From NCBI GenBank assembly GCA_963666285.1, contig OY762711.1: a DNA stretch of 64,000 bases; one strand, 5' to 3'. The notes under the pieces were generated by a model. It had not been told where the DNA came from. It searched no databases and saw only the letters and a program-made list of their open reading frames with translations. The number at the start of each line of letters is the position of its first letter. Positions within the stretch are counted from its first letter, which is position 1. Positions 8,863-27,493 of this stretch are shown here, piece after piece. This DNA is from Sedimentisphaerales bacterium. GTDB lineage: Bacteria; Planctomycetota; Phycisphaerae; Sedimentisphaerales; SM23-30. Made by a program: the position numbers and the translations under genes.

Positions 8863-9088
8863 GTCTTATCCTCACTGCTGGTTATTTTGTGAGTAATTAT
8901 AGCGATGTAAATTCTCATAAGGCAAGGAGTTCCAAAAAACTATATGGGTATTTTCCGACCTATTTGGCTCGAAAGGTCTTATGCCGGCATAAATCGTTTA
9001 ATGGTCAATATTTGAAAATAAATAACCGTAAAACACATTTTTTGAGTAGGTCTCCCAAGCGTAATAAACCAGTTCACATTAACAAATA

Positions 9089-9117
9089 AAAAAGGGCGGA
9101 TATTACTCCGCCCTGTT
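9089..9117. terminator. Terminator hairpin after the 9149-10159 gene
   Basis: AAAAAGGGCGGA-TATTAC-TCCGCCCT. Confidence 0.65.
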
Positions 9118-9148
9118 AATATTGTGGATAAGTTGTGCAAAACCTGTT

Positions 9149-10159
9149 TTATGCGTGTGCCATACCGCCTTTTTTATGTTCGGCCAATTCGCATAATGTT
9201 TTCATCTTTTCACGTACTTCCTCAGCCATTCTGCTGTTTGGATATTCCTTAACTATTGCCTGGCCAAGCTTTAATGCTTTTGCCCATTCTTTGCTGGTCA
9301 CAGCAATTGAGAACTGGACACCCATATTATGCAGCCTGGTTTTTAGGACATCCCGGGCGGTTTCCTGCAGGGCGGCAGCTTCTGTTGGTGTCAGGTGGTT
9401 ATCAAGCATCTTAAGTATCTCAACACTGCGATCGTGATCATTTTTCTTGGAGGCATCGTCGAGTTTCTGTAGAAGTTCCTGCTTGTGTTCGAGGCGTTTC
9501 TTTTCGGTCTGCCCATGCAGCTTCTTTACACTATCCTGATCTGGGTATTTATTGATCAAAGCAGCTTCTTCAGCCTGGGCAACTTTATAATCATGGATCA
9601 TCCAGAGCGATTCCAGATGCTTAATATGTTCTAAAGCCTGTTCTTCCACAGACATCTGCATCGTACGAGTCATTTCGTTTTTTAGTTTTTCTGCCAGCTC
9701 TTCCGCACCAAGTTTGGTTCGAATTTGCTCGATCAGCCATTCGGCGGTTTCGTTATCTCCTTTTCTTATACTCTGCATAGCAGTATCTTCGATTGTTTTG
9801 AGATCTTTATCTCTAAAAGCGATAGATTTTAAGGTATCACTGAGCAATACATTTTCACTCAGACTGTTAAGAATCGCCTCTTCATGGGTTTGGCTGGTAC
9901 GCATCCTTCGCAAATCATCTACCATGCTTTCAAGGTTTTCATTTACTCTTTGCAAGTAGCTGAGAGCTGAGAGGAAAAATATGAATGTGCCGGCAGAGAA
10001 CAATACCCAGAACATACCACGCGTGATAGACTGAAATTTTGTTGAATCCTGGGTGATTGGATTGCCTGGACTGCTAACAATTAGTGAGAAAAAGGCCGCT
10101 ATGAAAATAATCAGAAGCAGGAAGAATATTCCGGTATTATTGTTATCGTGCTTAATCAT
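9149..10159 (-). CDS. Hypothetical membrane-anchored helical protein
   Basis: 336-aa ORF, two N-terminal TM helices, coiled/TPR-like C-terminus, GGAGG RBS. Confidence 0.75.
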   Translation of the reverse strand: MIKHDNNNTGIFFLLLIIFIAAFFSLIVSSPGNPITQDSTKFQSITRGMFWVLFSAGTFIFFLSALSYLQRVNENLESMVDDLRRMRTSQTHEEAILNSLSENVLLSDTLKSIAFRDKDLKTIEDTAMQSIRKGDNETAEWLIEQIRTKLGAEELAEKLKNEMTRTMQMSVEEQALEHIKHLESLWMIHDYKVAQAEEAALINKYPDQDSVKKLHGQTEKKRLEHKQELLQKLDDASKKNDHDRSVEILKMLDNHLTPTEAAALQETARDVLKTRLHNMGVQFSIAVTSKEWAKALKLGQAIVKEYPNSRMAEEVREKMKTLCELAEHKKGGMAHA

Positions 10160-10457
10160 GATATGGCCTCCGCAATTATATTTCTATATCGATATGATAT
10201 TTGAGTACCGTCATATAAGACATTTTACATTTAGTAAAACGCTAAAAATTCAGATAGAATTTCATTGATTCTATAAAATTATATCATATCTAAGAAATAA
10301 AGTCAATTTTAGCTATATTTACATTTTTTTGTAAGTTCATATATAGAACAATTTTACAGACTGCTTGTTTAGCAGTTACACATAGGTAATGCTGAAACAA
10401 TTTTAAGTTTGATATCCTACTAATAATGTCGGCAAATGGGGTAGGGAGTTTACTTGT

Positions 10458-11141
10458 TTATTGGAATTTACCATCGATTAAAGATATAACCCGGTGTGCC
10501 TGCTGAGCTATATTCAGGTCATGAGTTACCATTACAATGGTCTGTCCATTTTTGTTGAGGTTGTGCAGGATGTCAAGAATGGCCGCACCAGATTTGCTGT
10601 CAAGGTTTCCAGTAGGTTCATCCGCCAGCAGCAATCTGGGATTATTGGCAAGAGAACGGGCTAAAGCTATACGCTGACGTTCTCCTCCTGACATTGTAGT
10701 TACTTTTTGTTTGGCATGTCCACTTAGTCCGACTAACTCAATAAGTTCGCTAGCTCGTTTGATTGCCTTAGGTTTTTCAATAGTCCATCGCCAGGCCGGG
10801 CATTTTATCATTATCGGAAGCATAATATTTTCCAAAGCATTCAGCTCCGGCAGTAAATGATAGAACTGAAAGACAAATCCTGTTTCCTGGTTCCGAATTT
10901 TATCTTTTGCCCGGTTATTTATCCTGGCGGTATCTTTGCCATTTATGATTACCTGCCCGCTGTCGGGAGAGTCCAGAAGTCCCAGGATGTGGAGTAAAGT
11001 ACTTTTTCCTGAGCCACTAGCACCCATAATAGCAACAAATTCACCCGGTTCAGCATTTAGATCCAAGTCTATCAGAACAGGGTGCTTAGTAGTTCCTTCT
11101 TTGAAACTTTTGTTAATTTTTGTTGCTTTCAGCATTATCAA
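10458..11141 (-). CDS. ABC transporter ATP-binding protein (LolD/MacB-like), no adjacent permease
   Basis: GASGSGKST, GFVFQFYHLL, MSGGERQR, LLADEPTGNLD, VTHD. Confidence 0.92.
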   Translation of the reverse strand: MIMLKATKINKSFKEGTTKHPVLIDLDLNAEPGEFVAIMGASGSGKSTLLHILGLLDSPDSGQVIINGKDTARINNRAKDKIRNQETGFVFQFYHLLPELNALENIMLPIMIKCPAWRWTIEKPKAIKRASELIELVGLSGHAKQKVTTMSGGERQRIALARSLANNPRLLLADEPTGNLDSKSGAAILDILHNLNKNGQTIVMVTHDLNIAQQAHRVISLIDGKFQ

Positions 11142-11165
11142 TATTTGGGAGAATAAATAAGACTA

Positions 11166-13367
11166 TTAGAGCCATACATCCAGAGCAATTAGCCTGAGCA
11201 GCGAATCTTTACTCCACTTAAACAGGGTTGATTTGCCACAGTCAATATTAACTTTACCGGACATATATGCAATCGCAGATTCATTAAGCTGGCCTGGCTC
11301 GATATCTATGGTAACCTCATATACTACTTCCATTGGTTTAATTTGCCCAATTGAAGAGTCATATTCTGAAAGTACTTCACCACCGACTTTGTTACTTAGG
11401 GCAAGTCTTTCACCATATTGGCCAAAATCCTGTTCGCTATGAACGGAAACAGATTTAACTTTTCCTTTAAATTTATCATCTAAAAAGCCATACAGCATCA
11501 TTTCAGCCTCTGGCTGAAGCCCTTCTTTTAATCCATTTATCCTAGAGAGTGTTTCTTCAGGGACCAGTACCTTGGCTTGCAGGGTCCTGGTATCAGCAAC
11601 CATCATGATGGGAGTGCCCTGGGGCACATAAGCGCCGCGAATTTTATCAATATCCTGATCCAGGGATAAAATTTGACCTTCGAAAGGAGTTTGAATTTTG
11701 AACTTTTCTATTAGCTCATTCTGACTGGCAAGTTGTTTATTTAAAGATACAAGTCTTCTATCCAGCTGGTTAACCAATTCAGCAGCGTTTTTCAGCTTTG
11801 CAATTTCTCTTTCGATTCTGGTTTTCTCAATATTTGCTTTAATAATTTTAACGTCATTTATAATTTCCGGGTTATTTAGTTCCGCAACCAGCGATTTATT
11901 TTTGAGCCATTTACCCTGGGCAATATTTTGGTCCAGAGCGATTATGCCGGACACTTCAGCTCTTATCATTTTGATATTGGTTGGTTCCAGGATAAAATTC
12001 AAAGTAACCTGCTGTTGGAAGGGAATAAACATAACCATTCCTGTCACAGCAAATACGATAGCCAGTAAAGTCAACAGCCTGGTGTTTGTAATACCCAAAG
12101 CTTCTCTTCTTCTAATAACCATATTTCCACCTTTAAAAACCGGCAATAAAACCATGCTTAAAACAGAGAATATCATCAGTGTTTTACCCAGCAGTTCCAG
12201 TTTGACAGAAGCAAACATTTTATACAGCATAAATGTAATTGAATAAGTAAGGAAAAGCCTGTAGCAAAATGAAAAAACAGCATACATAGGAAATAGCATT
12301 TTATACCTATGTTCTTCGGGAGATTCAGTCGGGTTGCCACCAAAAATATATTTAACCCAAAGATTGGTAATTGCATTGGAAGCTCTCTGCCGTAAGTTAG
12401 GAATTTCCATTATATCCATAACAATATAGTAACCGTCAAATTTCATAAGCGGGTTTGCATTCATCATGACAGTTGTAATTGAGCATGTCAGGATAATATT
12501 GAAACACAACGCATGCAGAAACTGAGGTCGGTCGGTTATATACCAGATAATAGTCGCAACAGCGGCGATGAATAATTCTACAAGGATGCCGGCAGCAGTA
12601 GCCATAACTCTGTGCAGTTTATTACGGAAAATCCATGAATCTGTGATATTGCAATAAAGCATTGGCATAAAGACAAGAATCAGAAATCCGATCTCATGAA
12701 CTTCACCGCCATAATGTTTACATGTGAAGCCGTGCCCAAATTCGTGTATAACTTTGGTAATCCAGAAAGCAGCAAATAACAAAGATGCATTCCAAATAGT
12801 AAAGAAATCATCATTAAACATGTTGGCAAAGTCATTCCACCTGTCAACAATAAGAGTTCCCGCTAAAATGAGAATTAAAAGGTAAAATATTAAGAAGGCA
12901 GGAGTCCATATAAAGCTTAATTTGTCAACTATTTTACCTATATGTTTGTCAGGGTCGTAAATCGGTATTTTCAGGTACAGAAAACTTGCGAATTTACCAA
13001 TAAGTTTCTTTTTGCGAATTTTTTTAGCTGAGTTATACAGCAATTCATCTCTGTCCGGATGATTTATGACCAAAATATTCTTAGCCAAGAGAGATCTGAT
13101 AAATTCGGCTATTTCTCTTCCGTCTAAATTCTGGCTGTTAAACTGTTTCTGATGCTTTTCGATCAGCTCACCAAGAGTTATATTATTGGAAAGCTGCTCG
13201 ATAAGAAAATGCTCTTCCCTGTTAAACCTGTAATATCTAAGGCTCATAGGGTCTTTATAAACCCAATAAGGCTGTCCATCATAAATTTGCTGATAGACTT
13301 TCATTTCAGGCCTGATGCGAGGCAGCATTTGAGCATCAGACAGCACTTTTTCATTTAATTCTGACAT
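11166..13367 (-). CDS. PqqD-like N-domain / M50 (site-2) metalloprotease / HlyD adaptor fusion
   Basis: YWVYKDPMSLRYYRF N-domain, TM region with HEFGH and NANPLMKFDGYY, C-terminal coiled coil and barrel-sandwich. Confidence 0.85.
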   Translation of the reverse strand: MSELNEKVLSDAQMLPRIRPEMKVYQQIYDGQPYWVYKDPMSLRYYRFNREEHFLIEQLSNNITLGELIEKHQKQFNSQNLDGREIAEFIRSLLAKNILVINHPDRDELLYNSAKKIRKKKLIGKFASFLYLKIPIYDPDKHIGKIVDKLSFIWTPAFLIFYLLILILAGTLIVDRWNDFANMFNDDFFTIWNASLLFAAFWITKVIHEFGHGFTCKHYGGEVHEIGFLILVFMPMLYCNITDSWIFRNKLHRVMATAAGILVELFIAAVATIIWYITDRPQFLHALCFNIILTCSITTVMMNANPLMKFDGYYIVMDIMEIPNLRQRASNAITNLWVKYIFGGNPTESPEEHRYKMLFPMYAVFSFCYRLFLTYSITFMLYKMFASVKLELLGKTLMIFSVLSMVLLPVFKGGNMVIRRREALGITNTRLLTLLAIVFAVTGMVMFIPFQQQVTLNFILEPTNIKMIRAEVSGIIALDQNIAQGKWLKNKSLVAELNNPEIINDVKIIKANIEKTRIEREIAKLKNAAELVNQLDRRLVSLNKQLASQNELIEKFKIQTPFEGQILSLDQDIDKIRGAYVPQGTPIMMVADTRTLQAKVLVPEETLSRINGLKEGLQPEAEMMLYGFLDDKFKGKVKSVSVHSEQDFGQYGERLALSNKVGGEVLSEYDSSIGQIKPMEVVYEVTIDIEPGQLNESAIAYMSGKVNIDCGKSTLFKWSKDSLLRLIALDVWL

Positions 13368-13434
13368 ATTTATTACTTATTTTCTGTGCCTGTAAATTCA
13401 ATGTATAGGCATTTTGAAAATTAAAAAACAAAAT

Positions 13435-14394
13435 TTAGAGAAGTTCTACTCTTACTCTCATACCTGGTCTATAGGTGAAAGGATATTTGTTATCCTGGTC
13501 ATCTTTAATTGTCGGATTGTCCATCTGAACTTCAATATAAAATTCGTCAATCGCTTCGATAATAGTAGGTTCAATATAAACAACAGTTGCGCGTTCTGAT
13601 TTGGTAAACCCTTGAACGTAAACAAGTGCCTTCTGACCAAGTTTAATATTTTCAAGAGACGATCTTGGCTGTTTAAATCTTACCCTGAGTTTATCAACTT
13701 CCATCATTGCTATTGCAGGGCTGGTAGCCTGAACAACCTCTCCCTTTCGAATTTGTTTAAGTGTATAGTTTTCCATACTTTTAACACTGGAGAATGGAAC
13801 GATTACACCATCAACCGGGGCAAAAATAGTATAGAATTCCAATGTTTTCTGTAGATTGGCCAACTGATTTTTAAGCAGTCTCATTTCAAGCTCGGCTTTT
13901 TTGACAGCTTCCCTGGCAAGGTCTCTTTGCTGGATAGCTTCTTTTTTTTCCTTGGCAGATCCAACTTTTGAACCACCGATGGTCTGATTAAACAAATCTT
14001 CAACGATTTTCAGGTTATCTTCGGAAAACTCAAGCTTGATCTTTGCTTCATTCATGGTAGTGCTGAGTTCAATTTTGTCTTTGAGCGATTGAATCTCTAG
14101 TTTCACCAGGTCACTATCTAGTTTAATAAGAGGCTGGTTTTTACTGACATAATCTTGCGGCAGGGCAGAAATTTCAGCTACAAGTCCGTTAACCATCGTG
14201 CTAAGAATAATTATCTGTTCTGCCTGGAAGAAATATGGATAACTTTCTTCGTAACTGGTATCAGAGTTTTCCATACCCAGATCGGCAAAAACTATGTCGC
14301 TGGAAGAAGAGTTTTGCGCAAAGCAGCAATTTCCAACTAATAGAGAAAATATTACAATCAAACTGCATAGAGTTTTTAAATATCTTAGAGACAT
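13435..14394 (-). CDS. HlyD-family periplasmic adaptor subunit
   Basis: Signal peptide, lipoyl halves (VNGLVAEI; IFAPVDGVI) around a coiled coil, RPGMRVRVEL end; start at ATG 14394 by RBS. Confidence 0.85.
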   Translation of the reverse strand: MSLRYLKTLCSLIVIFSLLVGNCCFAQNSSSSDIVFADLGMENSDTSYEESYPYFFQAEQIIILSTMVNGLVAEISALPQDYVSKNQPLIKLDSDLVKLEIQSLKDKIELSTTMNEAKIKLEFSEDNLKIVEDLFNQTIGGSKVGSAKEKKEAIQQRDLAREAVKKAELEMRLLKNQLANLQKTLEFYTIFAPVDGVIVPFSSVKSMENYTLKQIRKGEVVQATSPAIAMMEVDKLRVRFKQPRSSLENIKLGQKALVYVQGFTKSERATVVYIEPTIIEAIDEFYIEVQMDNPTIKDDQDNKYPFTYRPGMRVRVELL

Positions 14395-14509
14395 TGTAAA
14401 AAAATTCCTTTCGATAATGTTTATATCCAAATTTGTCAGAAGAATAGCCTGGTAATATAACTATTCTATTGACTAGTTAATGTTTATGGTCAATAAAAAA
14501 TAAAATTTG

Positions 14510-16495
14510 TTAGAAGGTGTTGACTCTAATGAAGTCAGTAAATTCGTGAGTTAGCAGGTAAAAGATACTCTTTTTACCGCATTCTATAGCAACTTTACCT
14601 TCCATTCCCTGTCGAAGCTCCATTTGGCTGAGCTCTTCGGGCATGGCGACAGTAACACTGATAACATTTCGATATTTCTGCTGGCCGGTAGTTTCAACAT
14701 GTGCTCGTGAAGATAGATTGACCACTTCAGTATCGAAAATTTTATCCGGATAAGCATCCATGATTACTTTAGCCTTCAGGGTTTCACCTTCTTTAAGTTC
14801 ATGCCAGGAATCCAGTAGGCTGCCGGCTTCATCTTCTGGCACATTAACCTGAAATTGCCATATTGGCGTTGTAGGTATAACTTCCAGGACCAGGTCACCA
14901 GCTTTTAGAGGTTTATTAGTAAGTTCCCTGATTTCAGTCTCTCGAGTGGTAATTATTCCACTAAATGGAGCTTTTATTTCATGGTTTTCTAGTATGAACT
15001 CATATTTAGCCTTTTCAGCTTTCATGCCTGCAATCGATAATTCAAGCCTTTTTGCATCTTCACCAAGACCTTTGCTTAGCGCCTGTCTGCGGGCAATGTT
15101 GCTTTCATCAATAGAATTCGCGATTCTTGTTAGTTCTGTTTCTGTGATACGGGTATCAAATCGAGCTAATACTTCTCCGGCTTTGACCATGCGGTCTTCC
15201 GGAATATTTACGGAATCGATAATGCCATCTGTCAAAGCGTAAATATTACGAGCACCTTTGGCTATAAGTTCTGAATTTCCAGTAACTTTTACATTTTTTT
15301 GTATAACATGCGGAAGGGTTACTATAGCTAGTAGTACTATAGCCCATGTGAGTTTTTTATATTTACTTGATCTAAAAGTTTTGTCTCTGAGTGAGGCAAG
15401 CAGTTTCATACAAGCCAGAAGAGGCAACTCATTGTATTTCTGGCAGTTTTTTATAGCGATACCGGCTTCAGCCATAAGCCCTTCAATTTGTTGAAGCTGG
15501 TTATTGCTAAAATCTTCTTCCAGAGCTTTTTCTACAATTAGAGCTCCAACGATATGTCCTTCTGGTGCTTTTATTGGAAAGATGCCTAGCATTACAGAAT
15601 CTACCTGGAGCATATAGAGCCTGGTAGCGGTAATAAGTTCATTATCATCGGTTGTCTCAGCTTTTTTAGCGGCATGGGGATTATCGACAATGAGAGGTTT
15701 ACCATTTTTGCATACTTCTTTGCTTATAGTTTCAAGATCTTTAAGCATAGCGCTTTTAACGGCAACCGATTCCAGGCCGCTGACAGCCTGTACGCGAAAC
15801 TTGCCATTAGAACTGTAAGTTCCTGCAGTACAACGATATACCTCTAGCAGCTCCTGCGAATAGTTTGCAATCGCATAGCCGCATCGCTTAGGATCAAGAC
15901 TGCTGTGCAGAGCACTGACATAATGCCTGAGTCTGTCGGTTTTACTGGTATATTTCTTTTGCGAACGAAGTTCTTCAGCGAGTATAAATTGTCCGGCTTT
16001 TTGACAAAGTCCGGCCACAAAACCAGCGTAACCTCTTACTGCACGAGGATCCACGCCTTCAGGAGAAATCAAAACCAAAATAGCGGCTACATCGCCGGAA
16101 ACCTTAACCGGGACAAATAACAGGGTATGCGGCGAGTTGTTTATTGCCTGCTGGCCGAGTCCTCCGTCATAGAGGTCAGAAGCGCCATGTGCCGGGAGAA
16201 CAATGGTACCACCAGATTCCTTAACTTTTTTTATCGCCATTTCAGCAAGTTTGAATTGGTTTCCGTTTGGTTCTAAACCTGCAATGGACTGGTTAATATG
16301 GCAAACACAAATTAACTGGTCAGTGTTTACTTTCCATACAGAACCGCCGCTGCCAAGAACAGAGACAATCTGTTCCAAAAATGTCCTGAAATATTCAACA
16401 AAGCTGAGTTCGGATTCGCTTATTAGAGCTATTTCCTGGTCTAAAATGGCCAGCCTGTCTTGAAAAGAATTGACCTGCTGCTGTGCTGTGTTCAT
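14510..16495 (-). CDS. GAF-like domains plus HlyD adaptor fusion
   Basis: N-terminal GAF-like region (VQAVSGLESV), single TM helix, IKAPFSGII, LRQGMEGKVAIECGK. Confidence 0.82.
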   Translation of the reverse strand: MNTAQQQVNSFQDRLAILDQEIALISESELSFVEYFRTFLEQIVSVLGSGGSVWKVNTDQLICVCHINQSIAGLEPNGNQFKLAEMAIKKVKESGGTIVLPAHGASDLYDGGLGQQAINNSPHTLLFVPVKVSGDVAAILVLISPEGVDPRAVRGYAGFVAGLCQKAGQFILAEELRSQKKYTSKTDRLRHYVSALHSSLDPKRCGYAIANYSQELLEVYRCTAGTYSSNGKFRVQAVSGLESVAVKSAMLKDLETISKEVCKNGKPLIVDNPHAAKKAETTDDNELITATRLYMLQVDSVMLGIFPIKAPEGHIVGALIVEKALEEDFSNNQLQQIEGLMAEAGIAIKNCQKYNELPLLACMKLLASLRDKTFRSSKYKKLTWAIVLLAIVTLPHVIQKNVKVTGNSELIAKGARNIYALTDGIIDSVNIPEDRMVKAGEVLARFDTRITETELTRIANSIDESNIARRQALSKGLGEDAKRLELSIAGMKAEKAKYEFILENHEIKAPFSGIITTRETEIRELTNKPLKAGDLVLEVIPTTPIWQFQVNVPEDEAGSLLDSWHELKEGETLKAKVIMDAYPDKIFDTEVVNLSSRAHVETTGQQKYRNVISVTVAMPEELSQMELRQGMEGKVAIECGKKSIFYLLTHEFTDFIRVNTF

Positions 16496-16853
16496 CTGGT
16501 TCTCCGTAAAAAGCGTTATAAGTGATTTTGTATAAATTACTTATATAGGCCAATCCCTGGCATTATAAGCAAGCGGCGGTCATTTGACTATAAAACAGTC
16601 CAATGACAGATTGACATCATACTCGATTGACATGGTAATGCCAAATCAAAAGCAAAATAGAGCACCACTCAAATCATCATAACTAATAATATTGGTACGA
16701 ACAGTATTTTAATGAAAAATCAATCATGGACAACCAAAAATCCAAATTAAAAGGTATCATGTGAAATATAATTTGTGACACAGCGATAAATTAAAAAGAT
16801 TTTAATGTTTGGACTATTTTGTAAGAATAGGTAACTTTTTTTGAAAATTATGG

Positions 16854-16881
16854 TTGACGTATCAGTACAATTTAGTATAAA
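16854..16881 (+). promoter_or_regulatory. sigma70-type promoter about 1.18 kb upstream of the giant protein gene
   Basis: TTGACG-N16-TATAAA with AT-rich upstream tract. Confidence 0.65.
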
Positions 16882-16887
16882 TAATAC

Positions 16888-18000
16888 CGAGGAAGAGAGT
16901 TTGAGAGTTTAGTGGAAGAGTTTGTCATCATGGCGTTTAGGGTTTTTTGCTATGGAAAAGTAAAACCCTGATGCTGAAAAACCGGTAATTGGCAACGACA
17001 TTCCGTTTTAGTCGGAGATTGCCTTTTGTGACAGACTATCCAAAAGTTGGAAAGTGTATATTGTGATCGCAGCACAGGAAGCGAGCGGCGAATATTATTA
17101 ACAGTATTATTAGCTGGAATTTAATACATGTTCCTGTTAATAATCAGGAGTGACATTACGAGTGTAACTTTGTCCAGAGTGATCAAAGTTACGAAAGGCG
17201 CAATATGGGCAGAGAAAATTTTTCTACTGGCGGTGAAAACTGTTTCATTGTCTTCCAGATGGGATAGCTGTTCTGAGCAAAAAAGCTGATATCAGTATTG
17301 AAAATCACTGTTGATGCATAACGCCAATCAAGTGTTTAATCGCTATTGGTTTATGCGTTTTTTGTCATATATAAGTTTTTTAAAAAAATAATGACAAAAA
17401 ACTGAAGTTGTTATGCCTAATGTAGTGATAATACTGAACAAGAAACTGTGTATAGTGCGCATGGACTATGCATAATGTTCTTTTAAAATTGAATATGAGA
17501 AAAAAGATTTAATTTTGGTTTGGGCTTACGTGTTAGATGTCGGCATGAATTTCGATTAAAGAAATGCAGATAAAAACCGCATTATTGAATATGTTATCGA
17601 GCACGTAGTACCAAAATCAAAATAATATGATACTCTTTCTACAAGCTGCAAATAGGCGAGTATGCTGATTTAGGTCTGGTTATCGAATTAAGTTTTATTT
17701 AATAAGATAAAACAGAAGTTATTGGAGCATCAGACTAAATTGTAATGTATACCGGCAGGAGTGCAGGCCTTGGCCTGTAATGGATGGAACCTGAAATTCA
17801 GGGCAAGTATAATGCGAGAAATTCGCAGAGCTGGTATAAGCGGTTAGACGGGCTAACGCCCGGGCTCCTGTTATTATGAGCCAATTGCAGATGAAATATA
17901 TACGTTATTATTCAGAAATTATGGAATCTAGAGAAACAAATTTATTCGAATGAGCCTTAGTGCGTTGCTGAGGTACAAAATTACGAAACACTCTCTTAAA
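16888..18000 (+). ncRNA. Candidate large structured RNA or very long 5' leader
   Basis: No ORF of 60 aa or more; at least 10 nested inverted repeats with G-U-compatible mismatches; 5' AAGAGAGT (16893-16900) complements ACTCTCTT (17990-17997). Confidence 0.6.
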
Positions 18001-18058
18001 ATTAAATGCACAAAAACGATTATAAAAGTTTGTCGCTTTTTATAAAGGAGATTAAATT

Positions 18059-21000
18059 ATGGCTAATGGGCTAAGTAAACTTATTAAAAGAGCAAGGAAA
18101 GCCAACGAGAGCAATATTCTCGCAAAGCTTGCTCGCAACAGATTTAGAGTTGAAGAACTCGAAGATCGTATCGCTCCCGCGGCTGGTGCAATTACAAATA
18201 CTGGCGCAGCACTTTCAAATGGTAATTTAACTTATACGCTTGGAAGTGGAGACGATGTGACCCTTGATCTTGGTACAGATCAATATACTATCACTACGTC
18301 AGGCGGTTACACCGGCGAAGGCGTCTCAATTACTTTTGATGCTGTTAGTGGTAGTGCAACAAAAATTACAGAAATTGATTTTGGTAGTTCTGTAGCTCTT
18401 GATGCTGCTACTACTCTGACAATTACAAGTAACAATGGTGCCGTCACAAATACTCTGACCGTTGACTCAGTTGTTGATACAAATGATAATACTGGAACAG
18501 CTAGTATTGTATTTACCAACAACGCTATTATGTCAGCGTTGTCAGTTGGTACTGTGACATTGAGCAATACAGGAATTGCAAACTGGGAATCTGGAGCAGT
18601 AACAGGAATTACAACTGAGACAGTTTCGGGTTCTATGACTGTTGGTGCAGTAGGTGCAACCGGTATAACAGCTAGTTCATCTTTTGCTGGTTCACTGACA
18701 GTTACCGGTTCTCTGGCCGGCCCTGTAACTTCAGCTAATGGCATAGGAGCGGTTACATTAGAGGCAGGAAGTACAGCTGCTGGTGCCATCACTGCAACAT
18801 CTGGTGCTATCACATCTATTACTATTGGTAACGGCGCAGGTGCGAATGATATTACTGTTGCCGGCGATATCGAAGCTGCAGGTTCTATTGGTGCTATAAA
18901 TGGTACAACAGGTGAAGGTACTATTGCAATTTCTGGTGCTATAACAGCAGGTACAAACCTTGCTGCAATTGGTGACTCAAATGATTATATCGATGGTATT
19001 ACAGGTGCTATTACAGCTCAGACTATTGCGGGAATCAATATGTCCGGTAATCTGACTGGCGGTGTAACAGCCAGCGGTGGTGCCGGTACTATTGGTAGCA
19101 TCGATATTGGTTCTGGTACTCTTGGTACTGTCAGTGCTACAGGTACAACAGGTAGTATTGGTGATATCACAGCGGCTGCTATCACTGGTGGTATTACAGC
19201 TACAGATTCAGATACTGGTGGAACTGATAATGCAATTGGTGCAATCATAACTTCAGGTGCAGTTTCTGGAAATATCAGTGGTTACTCAATCGATGATCTG
19301 GCTATTACAGGCGCACTTTCCGGTACAATTACAGTAGTAAATGGTTTTGACGATAATAACGGCCTGGCGATTGGCAGTGTTTCATCTACAGGTGGAATAG
19401 TTGTTACTACAGGTGACCTTGATGGTAGTGATGATATTGCGGTCAGTGGTGACATGGCAGGATCAATAACAGCTACTGCAGGTGCGATTGCTGCTGATGT
19501 TACTATCACAGGTGCTCTAACAGGTAAGATCGAAGCTACCGCGGGCAGTATTAGCGGAGCAATTACAGCCAAGAGCATTTCCGGTGGTACAGAAACAACA
19601 CCTAATATCAAAGCTAATACTTCTGTTGGCAATATCATAGTTACTGATGGCGATTTCGGCGGTTATGCTGTTTCCAGTACTACTATGGGTAACATTGATG
19701 TACGTGATGGTAACCTGTCAGCTACAGTTGTCTCAGGCAGTACAATTGGCACCATTGATGTTACAGATGATGTCGAAAACAATGGCACAACAGAAACTAC
19801 TGATGATGGTAACATCTCTGGTACTATTACCGCAACCGGAACAATTGGCGAGATTGTTATAGAAGATACACTTAGTGGTACAATTACTGCTTCAGGTTAT
19901 TCAGGAGCCATTTCTACAGGTGCTGATGAAGCTGTAGACGATCCATCGGCACTGCCGTCCGGCGGTATTTCAAGTACTGGTAGTATCACAGCAACAACAG
20001 GTAACTTTGCAGAATTGATCAGAATTTATGATGGTGGTATGGCTGGTACTATTACAGCTACTGACGGTGATATTCTTGGCGGTATTCAGATATTAGACAC
20101 AGTTACATCAAGTACAACTAATGGTGTAGATAATGACGCTGTTCTTTCTGGTACTGTTTCAGCCGGTGATGAAATTAAAACAGGTGCAATTACAATATCT
20201 GATGGTATTTCTTCAACCGGTCAGATTTCAGCTACAACAGACTTGGCATCTGATATTACTGTAACAGAAGGCGGCATGGCCGGTACAATTACTTCTGCTA
20301 CACTGGTTTCTGGTGATATTACTATCTCAGACGGCGGAATGTCAGGTACTATTTCAGCTACCGGAACTTCAGCTGACATCTCAGGTCAGATTCAGATACT
20401 GGATAGCGACGCTGATGATGACGGAACCTTCTCTGGAACCATTTCTGCCCTTGGTACGATCAGTGGTGCCGGTATTAGCGTATCAGATGGTATTACCTCA
20501 ACCGGTGCTGTATCTGCAGTTGATGATATTTCAGCTACAGTTACAGTAACTGACGGCGGTATGGCCGGTACTATTTCAGCTACTACCCTGATTTCTGGTG
20601 AATTGATTGTGACAGACGGCGGTATGAGCGGTACCCTAACATCAGCATCACTTGCCGGTTGTGATATAACAATTGGTGATGGCGCGACAGCTGCTGACGA
20701 TACAGATGATACTCTTAGCGGTACAATTCAGGCTACCAGCAGCAATGGTGTTAATGTTATAGATTCTCCTATCAAGATTGATGGCGGTATTACCGCAGAT
20801 GGTAAGATTATTTCTGGTGATAACATCTCAAGTGCAATCACAATTGGTACAGGCAGCACAACAGCTGATATGGCCGGTAAGATTGAAGCCAGCGGTGATG
20901 TTACCAGTGCTATAGTAATTGATGACGATTTGTCTGGTACAATCCAGGCTCTTACCGGTGCTTTTGGTACTGGCGATAATGCATTCTTAACAGTTGGCGG

Positions 21001-24000
21001 TGATATTACTTCTACAGCTACTCTGTCAGCGAAAACAGATCTTGCAGGTAGAATCGCTGTTACCGGCACTGTAAATATCCCTCTGACATTTGAAGGTGAT
21101 GTAACATCTACAATCACTGCTCAGTCATTTACAGGTGCTATCACAGTTGGTGGTGACCTGGGTGCTAATGTAAGTGCTATCTCTGGCACTACTGGTGTAA
21201 TTGGTAACATTTCTGCAGAAACAATAGGTAAAAACGGCAATGTTACTATCCAGGCTGATGACGGCATTGGTGCTATCACAACTACTGGTGCAATAGGTAC
21301 AACAGGTGCTAATACAGTAACAATTACTGCAGATCAGGACGGAGATAATACTGGTGATTTGACATCAGTAACTTCAGGCGGCTTAATGAGAGTTGCTATT
21401 ACTGGTGAAAACATTGGTGCTATCACATCAGGCGGAACTGCTGCCGATGATATTGAAGGTACAATTAGAGCTGCTAGTGATATCGACGGCGTTGATGCCG
21501 GTTTTGGTACAGTTATGGCTACAGTATCTGCCGGTGCCGCAACATCAGGTTCTCCATTAGCATGGGTTGTAGCTGAAGGTGTTACATACGCAGTATGGGC
21601 ATTGGATCCGACAACCGGCGCTGAAATGGCCGGAGTAACTGCAAATGTAGAATTTGCTCTTGATACAGCCGGCGACGGTGTTGACAATGCTGGTGATCAG
21701 CCAACAATTACAATTACCGGTATAACCGGCACAACAAGTGCTGCTCCAATTGATCTGAAAGTTGTTACAACAGCAGACAATGGTACAGCTACTCCAACAC
21801 TGACAGATGCAGATCTTGATATCGATGCGATTGGCAGTGATGTAATAGTTGCCTTATCTTCTGCTACACCTATATATATCAATGACCTTGATATTGAAGG
21901 CCAATATACAACATCTGGTTCAGACCCAGACATAATTGTTGCCGGTGCAACAACTGTTGAAGGTGGTATTGGTGGTACATTTACTCTGAATTTAGCTAAT
22001 CAGACCAGCTATACATTCAAGAGTATTGCTGCAAACACTACATTGACATTTACTGGTACTGGTACAGTTGATCCTACAATTACAATACTGGAAGGTATTG
22101 ACGATACAGGCGGAAATGTAACACTGACAATTGCGGGCAGTAATGTTGCCGCGTTAAATGTTGGTGATGCATCTCAGAACAAGACTGCTGATGTTGGTGC
22201 TGCAGGTGGTAACCTGACAACTATCAATGCCGGAACCAATACTATTGGTGAAATCGTCGTTGCAGGTAACCTGTATGGTACAGTTTCTGCTGCTTCTATC
22301 GGTAACGTTATCGTTGACGGTAACCTTGGCGATACAGTAGCTTCACAACTGCACGCAACTGCCGGAAGCATTGGTAATGTAAATGTCAAGGGCAGTATTG
22401 ACCTTACCTTGATCAAAGCAGAAAATGCTGCTGATCAGTCAACTGCAACTATAGGCTACATCGCAGCCGGTGCAAACCTTGCTGATGGTGCTAGCATGAC
22501 AATCAGTGCCGGTGGTGCTATCAGCGGTATCCATGCCGGCGGTTATATCGGTGATAATGGTGCCGGACATCTGGTTACAATTACTACTCTAAATGGTGGT
22601 ATAGCTGAGATTATTGCTGACGGTAATGATGGTGTCGACGATGCGATGAACTTAGACGTTGATGTTGCTGGCGATATTGATCTGATCAGTGCTAACAGTG
22701 ACGGCAATGCACCTATCGAAGGTGTTAAGATTCAGTCTCGTACAGGTAATATTGGTACTATCCAGACTGTTGACTCTGCTATTGATATCGATATCAAGGC
22801 TCTTGCCGGAGATATTGATAATATCCTGGTTAACGATGGTCCGACCGATGCCGACCTGGTTGCATCTGCTGGTATTGCCAATAACCTGACAATTCTGGCT
22901 GGTGGCGATATCGATTCTATCGTTGCCAATGCTATTGGAGCATTGACAACAATCACAGCCGAAGCAGCAACAGCTAATTCTCCTGTAACAACATGGCTGA
23001 TCGGTACAACACTTTATAGCCTGGAAGCCGAAGGTGGTACAGATAATACTACATACGGTTATAACTGGGTTAACGGTGTTCTTGATCTGACAATCAATAA
23101 TGCAGCTGATGCAGATGCAACTGATGACACATTGATTGAAATCAGTTTGACAACTGAGTATTCAGTAGGTGTTACAGACGCTGATAACGAAATGTTGGAT
23201 GATACTCAGTTTGATCTTGCAACTCTGAACTTTACTGCTGGCAGTATAGCAGATGACCTGGCTTCTCTGACTGTTGAAGGTGAGATTACCGGTCTGGTTC
23301 AGATTGGTTCTGTAGCAACTCTGCTTGTTGAAGGTAACGTTGCCCAGCCAATCCAGATAGTTGACAATGCTGCTAATCCGATTGAAGCTGTAGCTATGGC
23401 AACTGCTATGGGTGTTGATGACCCGGATGCAACAGCATTGGCCCAGATGTTCTCTGGTACTGCTGTTGCCTTTGAAGCTCCTGCTGTTGGCACAACATAC
23501 CAGGTACCAGTTACAGGTGCAAATGGTGATGTCAGCTTTGCAATCTATGATGCAGAATCAAGTGCATTTATAACTCCTGTTGTTCTGAGCCTGGGTAACG
23601 ATGGTGCAGGTAATGACGCAGTAGGTTTCTTTGATGTAACTGTTCTTGAAGGTGATGCATTGGATATTGATGCCGCTCGTTGGGCAGCAGGTGCTATCAC
23701 AATCGAAGGTGACCTTGATTATATTATCTTTGGTACTAATGTTGACGCAGTAACTATTACTGGTTCTATCCTTGAAGGTGCCGGTATTAACGCTTATAAC
23801 ATTGACGCTATCAATATTGGTGTAAATAACTCATTTACTGGTGGCGATCTGAATGGTTTCATTAGAGTTGTTATGCCTGATGATGAACAGTTTGACTTGG
23901 AACTTGATGGTGACTTCGATGCGGCTGACACAGCTCTTATGGGAATGTGCGGCGCTATCACAGTATTTGGTTCTGTTGGAGCAACCGGTGAAATCTACGT

Positions 24001-26845
24001 TGAAGGCGACCTGACCAGCTTAACAGTTGGTGATGCTGACTTCGATTATGGTGAGCTCGATGCTATAGGAACCGATGAAACCAATGAAGATAACTTCAGT
24101 GACGATGGTTCTCTGGTAGGAACATTTGCCGGTAACCTTGCAGTATTAGGTGACAGTGGTAATATTACCAGCATGTCAACTCTTGGCGGTACCATCATGG
24201 TTGGTGGCGACTGTGGAGACCTGCTATCAACTTATGACGATGTTACTGCTAACATTTTCATCGGTGGTACAAACGGTGCTGACGATGTAGCAATTACCGG
24301 TGATGCAATCTCCGGCAACATCGTTGTTGGTGCTATCGGTGGTATCGATACTTTGACTCTGACTGTAAGAGAAGGAGTTGAAAACAACGATCAGGAAACT
24401 TACACAGTATCTTCTTCAGCCGGTCATGCCATAATGGTTAATATAGCTGCTGGAAACGTAACTGGTTCAGCTCTGACTGTTGATTCAATTACATCGTTCG
24501 GTCCTGCTACAGCTCTGAACGCTACATCAGCTAACTTTATGGATAACGTAACTGTTGATAATATCTTCTTCCTGGCTAATTCAGGTGCTGACTGTGAAAT
24601 AGACGTTGAAGGTACTATCGGCGATATCGTTGGTGCGGACGGACTACCTCAGTTCCAGTCATCAGCAACTATTATGGCAGGTATTTCAGCTAATTATGAT
24701 CTGTTGAAATATGATGCTGTAACTGCTTTGGATGCCGCTAACGATGATAATACCGATACTAATCTTGATCTTGAATTTACTACTAACCTGCTGGGTATTG
24801 ACAATATTGTCGCTACAGGTGACATCACAGTTACAAGCACAGCAGATGGTCAGTTGATTCTTGACAATACTGATTTCGGTAATGTTGTTTCACTTGACGG
24901 TGCAGTTACTATAGACCTGGATGCAGAAAATATCGGTCATGTATTTGCTTACGGCAATGTAGAAAATGGTAACCTGCTTGCTCAGGGTACTGTTGCTGTT
25001 GGTGATGCTACCGCTTTGACAGCATCTCTAACCACTTACGGCCTGACACTGCCAGCTAACTTTACTGGTGGTATCATGAGTGCTTCCGGTTATGTAGGTA
25101 ACGGTGCTCTGGTTATTACAGGCATGGACCTTAGTGCTCCAGAATATGCAACTGAAGGTTACGTAGTTGGTGCAGTAACGGCTCTTGTTGGTGATGTTGA
25201 TGCAGATATCAATGCGACCGGCGGTGACTTCGGCGGACTGATTATTCCTCTTGGTGACTATGAAGGTGCGTTAGCTGCTTCTGAAAACATTGACCTGATT
25301 CTAATACCGGGTTATGATGCAGCAGATGGTACCTACACTAACGGTGAGACAACAGCTGTAGCTGTTTCTCTGACAGTTGCTGAGGCTGCCGGTGACCTGG
25401 ATGCAGAGACCACATTGATTGCTGGTGAAACAGTAATTTCTAACGGTCAGAGCTATGATGATGGTAACCTGGAAGTTTCAACAGATGACTCAGGTGTTCT
25501 TGCTTATGTAAATAATGCTGGAAATGCTTTGACTGTTATTAACGGTCTGGCTGCAAATAACACAATTAGTGTTGTTGGTAACCTGACAACTCTTACAGTT
25601 GACGGTACCTGGGCTGGAACAGTTGATATGATGAGTGATTCTGCTGGTGCATTGGGTCAGACATCTGAAGCCACTGGTTATACAGTTGGTACAGTAAATG
25701 CTCTTGGTGATATTGATGCATCAACAGCTCAGTTGTTGGCGGTAGATTTCACTACCTTCAATCAGCCTGCTATGTACTCACTGATCAATGATAGTGCAAC
25801 TGACAATTTCGTAATTGGCGGTCAGCTAAATTCAGATAATAATTCAGTACAGTTTACTAACACAGCTGGTGAAACTCAGACTGTTGTATTGATTGCCGGT
25901 AAGGCAGTTGCAATGGACTATGAAATGTACTTTGGTAAGATCACTGAAGCTACTTTGACTGGTCGCGGTGGTGTTTCAATTGTAAGTACAACTGAAAATG
26001 TCGTTGGTGCTACAGCTAATGAAACTGTTAAGAATGCTAAGGCTGTTCTTAAGAATGCAGCTCGCTACGGTGTAAGTGCTGACGATGGTACAGCTAACCT
26101 TGGTGACATTTCAGTTCATGGCACAGATAAGGTTAATATCAATGGCATGGTTGTTGATGGTAATCTGACATCATTGAACAGCGGTCTTGCTGATGTTAAA
26201 GACCTGTATGTAAATGGTTCAGTTAGTGCATTGACTATTGGTGATGATATCAATAATGCCTTCATTAGTGGTCAGGTAACTGATTTGGTTGTTAAAGACT
26301 CTCTGAAGGATCTAACCATGCTTGGTACTGGTACAGCAAGCATTACAGCCAATAAGATTAACAATCTGTATGTAGATGGTGCTATCAATGATCTACAGGC
26401 TTCTGTTGCAAGTAAGGTCGTAATTGATGGTAATGTTAACCTTGACTTTACAGCTGTAAAAGCTTCAGATGTAGTTATTGACGGTAATATTACTGACTTC
26501 TCAGTTGCTAATATTAACGGACTTATTATCGATGGCAATGCTACTAATTTCCATGCTGCTAACATCAAGAATGCTTCAGTTAGTGAAGTTGGTACTCTCA
26601 CAATGCAGAGTAATGGTTCTATCATTAACTCTACATTTGCGGAAGGTGCTGCTGGTAACGTTGATACTACTAAGAGGATCACTTACATGGCTGCTGCTAA
26701 TGGTACAGGAGCTGGTGGTGCAGTTGGTGATTTGGTACTTAAGAAGGTTGGAGTCAGAAACAATCCTGATTATATCAAGGTTCGTAATTCTGCTCTTGAT
26801 CCTGCCCTGTTTGCTAACAGTGCTCCAGTTGTATACATGGACTAA
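18059..26845 (+). CDS. Giant acidic Gly/Thr/Ala-rich surface protein (S-layer or adhesin-like) with LEPR-XLL-like N-terminal motif
   Basis: 2928 aa; basic N-terminus ending RFRVEELEDRIAPA; repeated GxIxA beta-strand motifs; AAGGAG RBS; strong GGT/GCT/ACT codon preference. Confidence 0.85.
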   Translation: MANGLSKLIKRARKANESNILAKLARNRFRVEELEDRIAPAAGAITNTGAALSNGNLTYTLGSGDDVTLDLGTDQYTITTSGGYTGEGVSITFDAVSGSATKITEIDFGSSVALDAATTLTITSNNGAVTNTLTVDSVVDTNDNTGTASIVFTNNAIMSALSVGTVTLSNTGIANWESGAVTGITTETVSGSMTVGAVGATGITASSSFAGSLTVTGSLAGPVTSANGIGAVTLEAGSTAAGAITATSGAITSITIGNGAGANDITVAGDIEAAGSIGAINGTTGEGTIAISGAITAGTNLAAIGDSNDYIDGITGAITAQTIAGINMSGNLTGGVTASGGAGTIGSIDIGSGTLGTVSATGTTGSIGDITAAAITGGITATDSDTGGTDNAIGAIITSGAVSGNISGYSIDDLAITGALSGTITVVNGFDDNNGLAIGSVSSTGGIVVTTGDLDGSDDIAVSGDMAGSITATAGAIAADVTITGALTGKIEATAGSISGAITAKSISGGTETTPNIKANTSVGNIIVTDGDFGGYAVSSTTMGNIDVRDGNLSATVVSGSTIGTIDVTDDVENNGTTETTDDGNISGTITATGTIGEIVIEDTLSGTITASGYSGAISTGADEAVDDPSALPSGGISSTGSITATTGNFAELIRIYDGGMAGTITATDGDILGGIQILDTVTSSTTNGVDNDAVLSGTVSAGDEIKTGAITISDGISSTGQISATTDLASDITVTEGGMAGTITSATLVSGDITISDGGMSGTISATGTSADISGQIQILDSDADDDGTFSGTISALGTISGAGISVSDGITSTGAVSAVDDISATVTVTDGGMAGTISATTLISGELIVTDGGMSGTLTSASLAGCDITIGDGATAADDTDDTLSGTIQATSSNGVNVIDSPIKIDGGITADGKIISGDNISSAITIGTGSTTADMAGKIEASGDVTSAIVIDDDLSGTIQALTGAFGTGDNAFLTVGGDITSTATLSAKTDLAGRIAVTGTVNIPLTFEGDVTSTITAQSFTGAITVGGDLGANVSAISGTTGVIGNISAETIGKNGNVTIQADDGIGAITTTGAIGTTGANTVTITADQDGDNTGDLTSVTSGGLMRVAITGENIGAITSGGTAADDIEGTIRAASDIDGVDAGFGTVMATVSAGAATSGSPLAWVVAEGVTYAVWALDPTTGAEMAGVTANVEFALDTAGDGVDNAGDQPTITITGITGTTSAAPIDLKVVTTADNGTATPTLTDADLDIDAIGSDVIVALSSATPIYINDLDIEGQYTTSGSDPDIIVAGATTVEGGIGGTFTLNLANQTSYTFKSIAANTTLTFTGTGTVDPTITILEGIDDTGGNVTLTIAGSNVAALNVGDASQNKTADVGAAGGNLTTINAGTNTIGEIVVAGNLYGTVSAASIGNVIVDGNLGDTVASQLHATAGSIGNVNVKGSIDLTLIKAENAADQSTATIGYIAAGANLADGASMTISAGGAISGIHAGGYIGDNGAGHLVTITTLNGGIAEIIADGNDGVDDAMNLDVDVAGDIDLISANSDGNAPIEGVKIQSRTGNIGTIQTVDSAIDIDIKALAGDIDNILVNDGPTDADLVASAGIANNLTILAGGDIDSIVANAIGALTTITAEAATANSPVTTWLIGTTLYSLEAEGGTDNTTYGYNWVNGVLDLTINNAADADATDDTLIEISLTTEYSVGVTDADNEMLDDTQFDLATLNFTAGSIADDLASLTVEGEITGLVQIGSVATLLVEGNVAQPIQIVDNAANPIEAVAMATAMGVDDPDATALAQMFSGTAVAFEAPAVGTTYQVPVTGANGDVSFAIYDAESSAFITPVVLSLGNDGAGNDAVGFFDVTVLEGDALDIDAARWAAGAITIEGDLDYIIFGTNVDAVTITGSILEGAGINAYNIDAINIGVNNSFTGGDLNGFIRVVMPDDEQFDLELDGDFDAADTALMGMCGAITVFGSVGATGEIYVEGDLTSLTVGDADFDYGELDAIGTDETNEDNFSDDGSLVGTFAGNLAVLGDSGNITSMSTLGGTIMVGGDCGDLLSTYDDVTANIFIGGTNGADDVAITGDAISGNIVVGAIGGIDTLTLTVREGVENNDQETYTVSSSAGHAIMVNIAAGNVTGSALTVDSITSFGPATALNATSANFMDNVTVDNIFFLANSGADCEIDVEGTIGDIVGADGLPQFQSSATIMAGISANYDLLKYDAVTALDAANDDNTDTNLDLEFTTNLLGIDNIVATGDITVTSTADGQLILDNTDFGNVVSLDGAVTIDLDAENIGHVFAYGNVENGNLLAQGTVAVGDATALTASLTTYGLTLPANFTGGIMSASGYVGNGALVITGMDLSAPEYATEGYVVGAVTALVGDVDADINATGGDFGGLIIPLGDYEGALAASENIDLILIPGYDAADGTYTNGETTAVAVSLTVAEAAGDLDAETTLIAGETVISNGQSYDDGNLEVSTDDSGVLAYVNNAGNALTVINGLAANNTISVVGNLTTLTVDGTWAGTVDMMSDSAGALGQTSEATGYTVGTVNALGDIDASTAQLLAVDFTTFNQPAMYSLINDSATDNFVIGGQLNSDNNSVQFTNTAGETQTVVLIAGKAVAMDYEMYFGKITEATLTGRGGVSIVSTTENVVGATANETVKNAKAVLKNAARYGVSADDGTANLGDISVHGTDKVNINGMVVDGNLTSLNSGLADVKDLYVNGSVSALTIGDDINNAFISGQVTDLVVKDSLKDLTMLGTGTASITANKINNLYVDGAINDLQASVASKVVIDGNVNLDFTAVKASDVVIDGNITDFSVANINGLIIDGNATNFHAANIKNASVSEVGTLTMQSNGSIINSTFAEGAAGNVDTTKRITYMAAANGTGAGGAVGDLVLKKVGVRNNPDYIKVRNSALDPALFANSAPVVYMD

Positions 26846-26888
26846 TAATCTGACCAAGGTTAGACGTAATAGTCTATATTGTAAAATT

Positions 26889-26922
26889 AAAAGGTCTCCG
26901 GCTTTGCCGGGGGCCTTTTTTT
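26889..26922 (+). terminator. Rho-independent terminator
   Basis: AAGGTCTCCGGC-TTT-GCCGGGGGCCTTTTTTT. Confidence 0.88.
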
Positions 26923-27245
26923 GTGTCCAAAGCTTAGATGTTGAGTAGTTTTCTCACTTGTACTAATGCAAACAATTATCTGGTGCTACCATATTTGTAA
27001 CAGGATGTTTGTTTAATTATTTAATTGAGTTCGATTTGAAATATCTATAAAGCATATATTTGCATATGGGCCTACCTGAAAATATTCAATTTCTCTAGAA
27101 TTTATAAGTATTTGCTATCAAAAGTGTAATCTTATGTTTGCATTATTTCGTTATCATAAAATATCTGTTATTGGCCATTTTCTTGTAACTTTCCAGGCAC
27201 ATCTGTCGTAATAAAGGTAAATCGTTACTCCCGGTAACAAATGTC

Positions 27246-27273
27246 TTGACATTTTGGGATTTTGGAGTATAAT
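27246..27273 (+). promoter_or_regulatory. sigma70-type promoter of folC
   Basis: TTGACA-N16-TATAAT. Confidence 0.75.
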
Positions 27274-27493
27274 TTGCTAATCTGCCAGTCTATTCTGGCT
27301 TTGACAAGACGGTTACTACAGTACCGGTTGAAGTTATAATGTTAGCAGATAAAAAATTTGTGTGGCGTGAGAGTAAAACACCACAGATGGGGCGTTGGTT
27401 ATTGATGGAATTTATGGTGAAAAATGGAATAAGTAATGTTAAACAAAACCTAAGTTCCTGTTAATAATCAACTTGAAGAAAAAGTAAGGAAAA

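Follow-up and report, generated by a model that had tools for sequence, protein, structure and literature searches.

In type I secretion systems, peptidase-containing ABC transporters couple the removal of an N-terminal leader to export. A conserved locus described by Kamneva et al. in 2015 combines a short secondary SecA with Peptidase_M50-HlyD, HlyD and GAF-HlyD proteins, and sometimes with an OEP, and is without an ABC transporter; the authors proposed that the SecA acts as ATPase and that the M50 protein forms the pore (PMC4452313). The same authors noted unlinked copies of SecA2 and OEP genes, reported the module from other phyla, described the short SecA proteins as lacking most of the wing/scaffold domain that is used with SecYEG, and treated GAF domains as sensory (PMC4452313). 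A second point of comparison is the daptide pathway, in which the leader carries the motif ELExMEAP with Pro at position -1, and in which the authors assign leader removal to an RRE-fused site-2 protease. In the portions of that report available to us, the mpaABCDMP genes are enough for mature daptide, and cleavage by MpaP alone is not isolated (10.1101/2023.03.08.531785).

We analysed a gene cluster of this kind in a 64,000-nucleotide stretch of DNA from a Sedimentisphaerales bacterium (contig OY762711.1; hereafter the window), which is part of a 6.35-Mb genome. An earlier note made from the sequence alone had held that such clusters lack a mechanistic description. This stands for the substrate and for the mode of recognition, since the accessible portions of the 2015 description name no substrate, RRE, PqqD, leader, adhesin or phage, but not for the module itself, for which a SecA ATPase and an M50 pore were proposed (PMC4452313). 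The SecA2/M50/HlyD module is known from genomes, and therefore the system is not categorically new. No description of an RRE/leader mechanism, of the duplicate or of the phage mimics discussed below was found in the open-licence PMC or bioRxiv literature. What is new here is a family-specific duplicate, a single-copy giant protein with a predicted beta-helical C-terminus and a variant leader, a predicted complex of that leader with the RRE and the HExxH site, and leader-only genes in phage DNA.

Five open reading frames proposed in the earlier note are all present at the positions given there, and their domains (GAF plus HlyD, HlyD, M50 plus HlyD, and a LolD/MacB-class ATPase) were recovered with Pfam and NCBIfam. 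The export cassette lies on the minus strand and begins with a 661-aa GAF-HlyD fusion (14510..16495; Pfam GAF at residues 208-348, HlyD_3 at 507-614), whose short membrane anchor was overlooked by the hydropathy scan. This gene is followed by an HlyD-type periplasmic adaptor (13435..14430; 331 aa as called; Pfam HlyD_3/HlyD_D23) and by a 733-aa RRE-M50-HlyD fusion carrying an intramembrane zinc protease (11166..13367). For the middle gene, the hydropathy scan gives one hydrophobic segment, an N-terminal signal at residues 18-39, and the true start is likely an ATG located 12 codons into the called frame. Divergent from the cassette, on the plus strand, is the gene for a giant acidic Gly/Thr/Ala-rich protein of 2928 aa (18059..26845), with a terminator-like hairpin of 14 pairs downstream (26889..26919, plus strand; consensus match only). 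The 1.56-kb intergenic stretch between them (16496-18058) holds no open reading frame of 60 aa or more, and promoter matches within it are not in excess over shuffled sequence. As the earlier note had observed, none of the 25 window proteins scanned carries an ABC membrane domain of an HlyB-type transporter, and no OEP (PF02321) match that might indicate a TolC falls inside the window. The gene order is not an assembly artefact, since one contig of the probable source run crosses positions 9000-18069 with zero differences (coverage that is not independent support); another contig of the same run covers 18043-27500.

The fusion protein was modelled with AF2 at a mean pLDDT of 83.6. In the model its N-terminus folds into three strands followed by three helices, the winged-helix RRE fold, which bears out the earlier reading of an RRE-like domain. 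This RRE (PqqD-like) domain, at residues 16-102 (13062..13322, minus strand), has structural matches to 5v1u, 6jx3 and 5sxy; VIA-align superimposes it on the lasso-peptide RREs TbiB1 (Z 12.2, rmsd 2.3, 83 aligned) and TfuB1 (Z 11.7). The Pfam PqqD family matches 20 of 66 fusion homologues at E<=0.1. Residues 140-385 form a multi-helix membrane domain that aligns with SpoIVFB (Z 9.9, rmsd 4.7, 164 aligned; VIA-align) and also matches the fold of RseP, and the C-terminal part aligns with MacA (Z 14.4; VIA-align). PF02163 matches all 66 homologues at E<=0.1, with the window protein scoring below the curated cut-off. The claimed M50 motifs are intact: the zinc-binding HEFGH at residues 208-212 (12732..12746, minus strand), an instance of HExxH, is joined by NxxPxxxxDG. 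The protease itself looks intact, because its catalytic positions (H208, E209, G211 and H212 together with N303, P306, D311 and G312) are invariant in 66 of 66 homologues. The best NCBIfam match of the fusion is the daptide protease NF041824, at 165.5 bits and below the cut-off of 300. Judged from sequence and model, the reading of this protein as an RRE-M50-adaptor fusion appears to be right.

The remaining parts of the 2015 module can be located in this genome. Peptidase_M50-HlyD, HlyD and GAF-HlyD genes are clustered in the window, and a second, short SecA of 646 aa is encoded at C1:5774750-5776690, unlinked to the cassette. This SecA is the best match in the genome to the SecA genes that stand beside the fusion in other genomes, and its orthologue is present in 20 of 25 genomes of the family and in nine of the nine high-quality ones. 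Of 20 loci from other genomes, hand-picked and in six cases chosen because a SecA match was known nearby, 14 have a short SecA next to the fusion, seven an OEP and six a leader-bearing protein. Ten OEP genes are found in the genome, and one orphan among them (C1:3443322) is the best match of the linked OEPs in six of seven such loci and tied in the other. In every family locus read, SecA2 and TolC are unlinked to the cassette. These comparisons point to the short SecA encoded elsewhere as the likely motor. The cassette also has no cognate ABC transporter, the adjacent ATPase being LolD-like and not conserved in position.

That adjacent gene (10458..11141, minus strand) encodes a LolD-like ATPase of the MacB/LolD class, which the earlier note had counted as part of the machine and had called permease-less. 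Its closeness to the protease gene gives some reason for this view: it starts about 25 bases behind on the same strand, no terminator-like site intervenes, and it may be co-transcribed, so that it could be thought to energise the cassette through the M50 membrane domain. However, no orthologue stands behind the protease in any of 23 related loci, two of which have unrelated ABC ATPases near the protease (69 and 79 bits). Among five relatives searched, the orthologue directly follows a lolC/E orthologue in two (G001 and G027), is about 0.3-0.4 Mb from the cassette in two others if their contigs are circular (G016 and G022), and is on another contig in the fifth (G062). The term permease-less does not hold either, since this genome has two orphan LolC/E-like permeases, neither with an ATPase beside it, and the orthologues of the ATPase adjoin one of them. 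Its best NCBIfam match is LolD (TIGR02211) at 241.6 bits, below the cut-off of 307.75; the ATPase and the permeases both score under cut-offs that are E. coli-centred. A role for this ATPase as export motor is thus highly improbable, and we ruled it out on its non-conserved position and the lolC/E adjacency of its orthologue. The gene is most likely LolD, brought beside the cassette by rearrangement, and would be an accidental neighbour outside the export cassette. A 336-aa membrane protein that belongs to no family (9149-10159 in the window) accompanies LolD in the same-genus genome G016.

The fusion of the window falls in a clade that 24 of the 25 family genomes possess, at 44-63% identity. 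In the rest of the order, matches occur in 16 of 176 genomes, all at 31% identity or less. A quick tree, built from 17 family loci with a full-length frame plus the window protein, in a group chosen by similarity, gives the clade a support of 100 and places the genome's second M50-HlyD copy outside it. That second copy, a second GAF-HlyD gene, a DUF3467 gene and the short SecA gene are all scattered over the genome. We therefore favour, with some confidence, the view that GAF-HlyD, HlyD and RRE-M50-HlyD are a family-specific duplicate of the SecA2/M50/HlyD module. Across the phylum, the fusion is present in 93 of 301 Planctomycetota genomes (about one third), NF012209 leaders in 55 and both in 51. 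The co-occurrence that the earlier note had named as a check is evident, with LEPR-type leaders in 51 of the 93 genomes with the fusion as against four of the 208 without, kin not being independent in these counts; 42 of the 93 have no NF012209 match. A phylum-wide search for SecA2 did not separate short from canonical SecA.

The linkage between cassette and giant is also conserved. Of 16 informative family loci, 14 have the giant immediately upstream of the cassette, 12 of them on the same strand and two in divergent orientation, both of these from the genus of the window. A fragment (L047) is one more probable case, and in one locus (L034) no giant precedes the cassette. Family members usually carry DUF3467, giant, GAF-HlyD, HlyD and protease in this order on one strand, with the giant inverted in the genus of the window. 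In the loci that reach it, the GAF-HlyD orthologue is directly 5' of HlyD, except in three (L041, L052 and L024) that yielded no intact HlyD or GAF frame. In L052 (G098:C18:1248-3353), the protease-adaptor orthologue is fragmented by frameshifts or assembly errors.

The giant itself matches no Pfam or NCBIfam family. Its C-terminal 450 aa are modelled as a beta-helix (pLDDT 86.5), an assignment that rests on VIA-align (3p4g: Z 15.6, rmsd 3.7, 232 aligned), as Foldseek gave zero matches at E<=0.001. The N-terminal 600 aa match only unnamed Planctomycetota clusters in the ESM Atlas (0.86; a lead only). Orthologues are mostly 25-35% identical in the body, with one at 60%. Indirect signs of an S-layer-like protein are a single copy, a fast-diverging acidic body and a codon bias toward highly expressed use that ranks 59th among 2424 ORFs and first among the 15 leader proteins of the genome. 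A single-copy linked leader, a diverging body and this codon bias together fit a machine dedicated to one surface protein that is abundant and evolves fast. From sequence and modelling, the giant is the likely dedicated substrate of the cassette; that it is also a major surface-layer protein we put at even chances.

The last 610 residues of the giant (25010-26845) are 60% identical to those of a protein from another genus (L035:9773-11530), but only 26% identical to those of a same-genus genome. The C-terminus is thus closer to another genus than to its own, which suggests mosaic exchange of surface-protein segments. In run X1, a second, low-depth contig matches only the leader region (window 18043-18184), with 16 differences, and ceases to fit two codons after Pro40; it is probably from a relative in which the same leader heads a different body.

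The N-terminus of the giant is basic and non-hydrophobic, as the earlier note had described, with a best 19-residue hydropathy of 0.45 and the motif given there at its end. It forms a bipartite leader of 40 residues (18059..18178, plus strand), with a basic N-motif followed by EELExRIAP. The assignment of the giant to the LEPR-XLL class fared less well. The NF012209 model (24 positions, cut-off 17 bits) finds no match in this leader at E<=1, though nine places in the genome match at that level and four places other than this leader pass the cut-off. The Planc_extracel model PF07595 matched nowhere in the genome or in the controls, this leader included. Motif-bearing N-termini are above chance in this genome, with 15 occurrences in the first 100 residues of ORFs (0.30 M residues) as against six in 1.30 M residues further in. 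Canonical LEPR-type leaders are carried by 14 proteins here, and these, together with the second, scattered M50-HlyD and GAF-HlyD set, make cross-talk between systems possible. On contig G000:C1, at least 15 leader-tagged proteins of 570 to 11171 aa occupy 15 loci (for example 2757710-2791225 and 3162210-3193796), scattered and unlinked to the second M50-HlyD or GAF-HlyD genes. The leader type of the giant gives strong matches in 18 of 25 family genomes, one copy each; outside the family, matches occur in six of 176 genomes of the order and are weak (E>=8e-4).

The structure prediction of leader and N-domain that the earlier note had proposed agrees with recognition of the leader by the fusion. 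Modelled together, fusion residues 1-420 and the N-terminal 52 residues of the giant gave a complex score of 0.63, compared with 0.00 for the best control. The mark for this score is reached by 116 of 157 solved complexes and by two of 215 mismatched pairs, a calibration that only roughly holds here because custom alignments were used; contact agreement between runs was at least 76% and partner pLDDT at least 57. In the model, leader residues 31-34 lie on the RRE strand 44-48 and helix 85-96, R37 is near residues 240-245, and the interface (leader 28-42) extends into the HExxH site to include H208, E209, H212, N303 and D311. Part of the score may reflect likeness, because RRE-leader complexes have already been solved (5v1u, 6jx3). 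The contacts reveal no specificity for this leader, because clade-specific residues are not enriched among them: positions that differ between this clade and other members make up four of 49 predicted contact positions, near the background of 36 of 420. We consider it very probable, from these models, that leader, RRE and M50 domain form a complex.

A cut after Pro40 is predicted from the resemblance to daptide leaders, because ELEDRIAP of the giant matches the daptide ELExMEAP in both length and register. Among 37 sequences, leader positions -10 to -1 are nearly invariant, the +1 residue (Ala41) is Ala in 95%, and conservation collapses beyond it. That the protease cuts the leader after Pro40 is accordingly a prediction we regard as probable, if less so than the complex.

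Small proteins with related motifs occur in the data (P0169-P0176), with several EELE-x-RIAP-like repeats, most of them then followed by an NHNE motif. By sequence, these look like multi-core RiPP precursors that share the same leader grammar. No description of NHNET was found in the open-licence PMC or bioRxiv literature.

The explanation we rate best for the locus as a whole, and consider fairly likely, is that a duplicated module exports the giant by way of RRE recognition, an M50 cut, and SecA2 and TolC acting in trans. The RRE would bind the EELExR motif of the leader, and the M50 site would clip the leader after Pro40. The short SecA encoded elsewhere would push the giant, and a TolC encoded elsewhere would provide the outer-membrane exit. 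GAF-based regulation, as put forward in the earlier note, would be a further possibility that the domain name suggests. As to the route of passage, we lean slightly toward one SecA2-driven step through an adaptor-TolC channel.

In the two-step alternative, SecA2 would work through SecYEG, the RRE-M50 protein would be only a dedicated signal peptidase, and adaptors and TolC would collect the giant from the periplasm. All of the evidence for leader recognition applies to it equally. The likely motor is a SecA paralogue, the protease aside no dedicated inner-membrane pore is encoded, and one adaptor bears a signal of the cleavable type, which would leave it soluble in the periplasm. The leader, however, is without a hydrophobic core that could open SecY, and the short SecA has only 646 aa; such proteins are described as missing most of the wing/scaffold domain (PMC4452313, in the portions available). 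These two features make the two-step route unlikely in our estimate, and one-step passage through the adaptor-TolC channel remains the reading we prefer.

Further information comes from phage DNA. A search of 1.84 billion representative proteins with a leader profile gave 57 matches, 12 of which end at the last residue of the leader. At the DNA level, four of these 12 were confirmed to end in a true stop and to follow a purine-rich, ribosome-site-like sequence. Genes that consist of the leader only and stop exactly after its Pro are present on at least seven unrelated phage or phage-like contigs, or eight if L095 is included. A leader-plus-stop scan of metagenomes found three contigs with genes of 40, 45 and 43 codons, each preceded by a ribosome-site-like sequence and closing with a stop after Pro. 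The 40-codon gene precedes a tRNA cluster, the 45-codon gene follows a portal gene, and the 43-codon gene precedes a ParB-like gene; the contigs of the 40- and 43-codon genes are phage-like, with no hallmark gene in the stretch examined. In IMG/VR, a 44-codon leader-only copy adjoins tail sheath and tube genes (L080), and a frame of 18 codons with the C-motif only lies among head genes (L075). Other C-motif-only frames precede the terminase gene in five near-identical contigs (the L096 group) or comprise 13 (L097) and 12 (L095) codons. Late expression is suggested because four of the seven leader-only genes sit among virion-assembly genes.

These genes could instead be relics of captured host DNA or functionless chance matches. 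The loose stop-anchored pattern gave 13 matches and its permuted control three, one of them with a stop, so that some matches are expected by chance. The shortest case, L095, may be one of these because the control matches the same loose pattern; the other cases extend beyond it. Five of the 13 matches are PhoH frames that read on through TGG and were dropped. In addition, eight of the 12 leader-only proteins from the profile search may be contig-end fragments, and contigs do break near the leader. Against this, seven unrelated contigs terminate the frame after the same residue, the copies of 40-45 aa combine both motifs with a ribosome-site-like sequence and a stop, and the 301 cellular genomes searched from the class all lack the leader-stop pattern. 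We therefore hold relics or chance to be quite improbable as an account of the phage genes.

Other searches delimit their distribution. The N-motif pattern gave 18 matches, comprising one full leader-only gene, one N-motif fusion and 16 that are unrelated or too weak. Full two-motif patterns had zero matches in IMG/VR, an alignment-based viral search yielded 98 candidates of which none was confirmed, and the two matches in GenBank phages are both chance. One strict pattern for mimics of the canonical LEPLE-R-LL leader found none in phages. No leader-only gene was found in this genome, including its contigs C2, C3 and C4 (about 65 kb each), which are three related phage-like elements, each encoding a giant protein of 3700-5500 aa. 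Two indirect hints to the host come from protein similarity: a neighbour of the L075 gene shares 68% identity with a protein of this genome over 25 residues, and L078 carries a prepilin-type protein with 28% identity to one encoded here. The window also contains a type II CRISPR-Cas locus (48148-54250) with Cas9 (1095 aa), Cas1 and an array of 36-nt repeats with 20 spacers, and an isolated repeat copy at about 55880. The 20 spacers match neither ten phage loci nor contigs C2-C4.

We propose that the phage peptides mimic the released leader, and we consider this somewhat likelier than not to be their role. Late in infection, such a copy would fill the RRE and the active site, would not be cleaved, and would thereby stop renewal of the surface protein; the block may serve to exclude competitors or to spare progeny. 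A different role follows if the protease releases the leader as a cytoplasmic signal that reflects the supply of surface protein and is sensed by GAF, DUF3467 or a regulator, with the giant exported otherwise and the phage peptides imitating the signal. The basic N-motif is conserved separately from the RRE-binding part, and the 40-45 aa phage copies retain both motifs while the linker diverges. One phage (L097) has a gene that starts with the leader N-motif about 300 bases downstream of its C-motif peptide gene, and GAF domains are described as sensory in the accessible text of PMC4452313. Regulated proteolysis of this sort would leave unexplained the three HlyD-type adaptors, one of them fused to the protease, and the linked SecA and OEP genes elsewhere; moreover, no export signal other than the leader was seen in the giant. 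It is in our judgement improbable, and an export function with phage mimics as its inhibitors is the account we retain.

The cassette thus offers a case of one machine and one substrate, with a predicted cut site, for a published module to which the accessible literature assigns no tested substrate or mechanism. The phage genes supply natural evidence for the cut site and are candidate inhibitors. If inhibition holds, RiPP leader chemistry would be linked to giant-protein export, and leader mimicry would join the means by which phages remodel the host surface. In its broadest form the proposal is of a secretion system separate from both type I and Sec, in which the RRE-M50-adaptor protein would act as receptor, peptidase and inner-membrane gate and a truncated SecA as the source of power. 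The family would have duplicated it for an S-layer-like giant, and unrelated phages would carry leader genes as secretion inhibitors, a new anti-receptor strategy. This full version we offer tentatively, as falling somewhat short of an even chance.

Compared with the module of Kamneva et al., as described in the available portions of that paper, the genome shares three adaptor-bearing genes, the lack of an HlyB-type transporter, and SecA2 and OEP genes; it differs in having a family-specific duplicate tied to one giant with a variant leader (PMC4452313). With the daptide protease MpaP/NF041824, as far as its source was available, the protein shares an N-terminal RRE fused to a site-2 protease and a leader register with Pro at -1 (10.1101/2023.03.08.531785). 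It differs in being fused to a periplasmic adaptor, in having a 2928-aa substrate rather than a short RiPP, and in scoring 165.5 where 300 is required; no daptide tailoring genes were seen in the window. Type I secretion (HlyB-HlyD-TolC) has in common with this locus the HlyD-type membrane fusion proteins and a candidate TolC-like exit. In contrast to type I systems, no HlyB-type ABC membrane domain occurs in the 25 window proteins scanned or next to the fusion in the 23 family loci, the place of the C39 peptidase is taken by an RRE-bearing M50 zinc protease, the motor is likely a SecA, and Pfam finds no RTX repeats. Proteins of the LEPR-XLL/Planc_extracel type resemble the giant in their basic N-terminus, in an acidic-Leu-acidic-x-Arg motif 20-60 residues in, and in their great length, whereas the leader of the giant ends in RIAP instead of RxLL, has an extra conserved N-motif and is missed by NF012209. 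Among phages, the Llp protein of T5 disables the host receptor. The leader mimics would likewise protect progeny or exclude competitors by removal of a surface receptor, but they would do so by striking the export machine through a copy of its substrate's leader, and not by binding the receptor.
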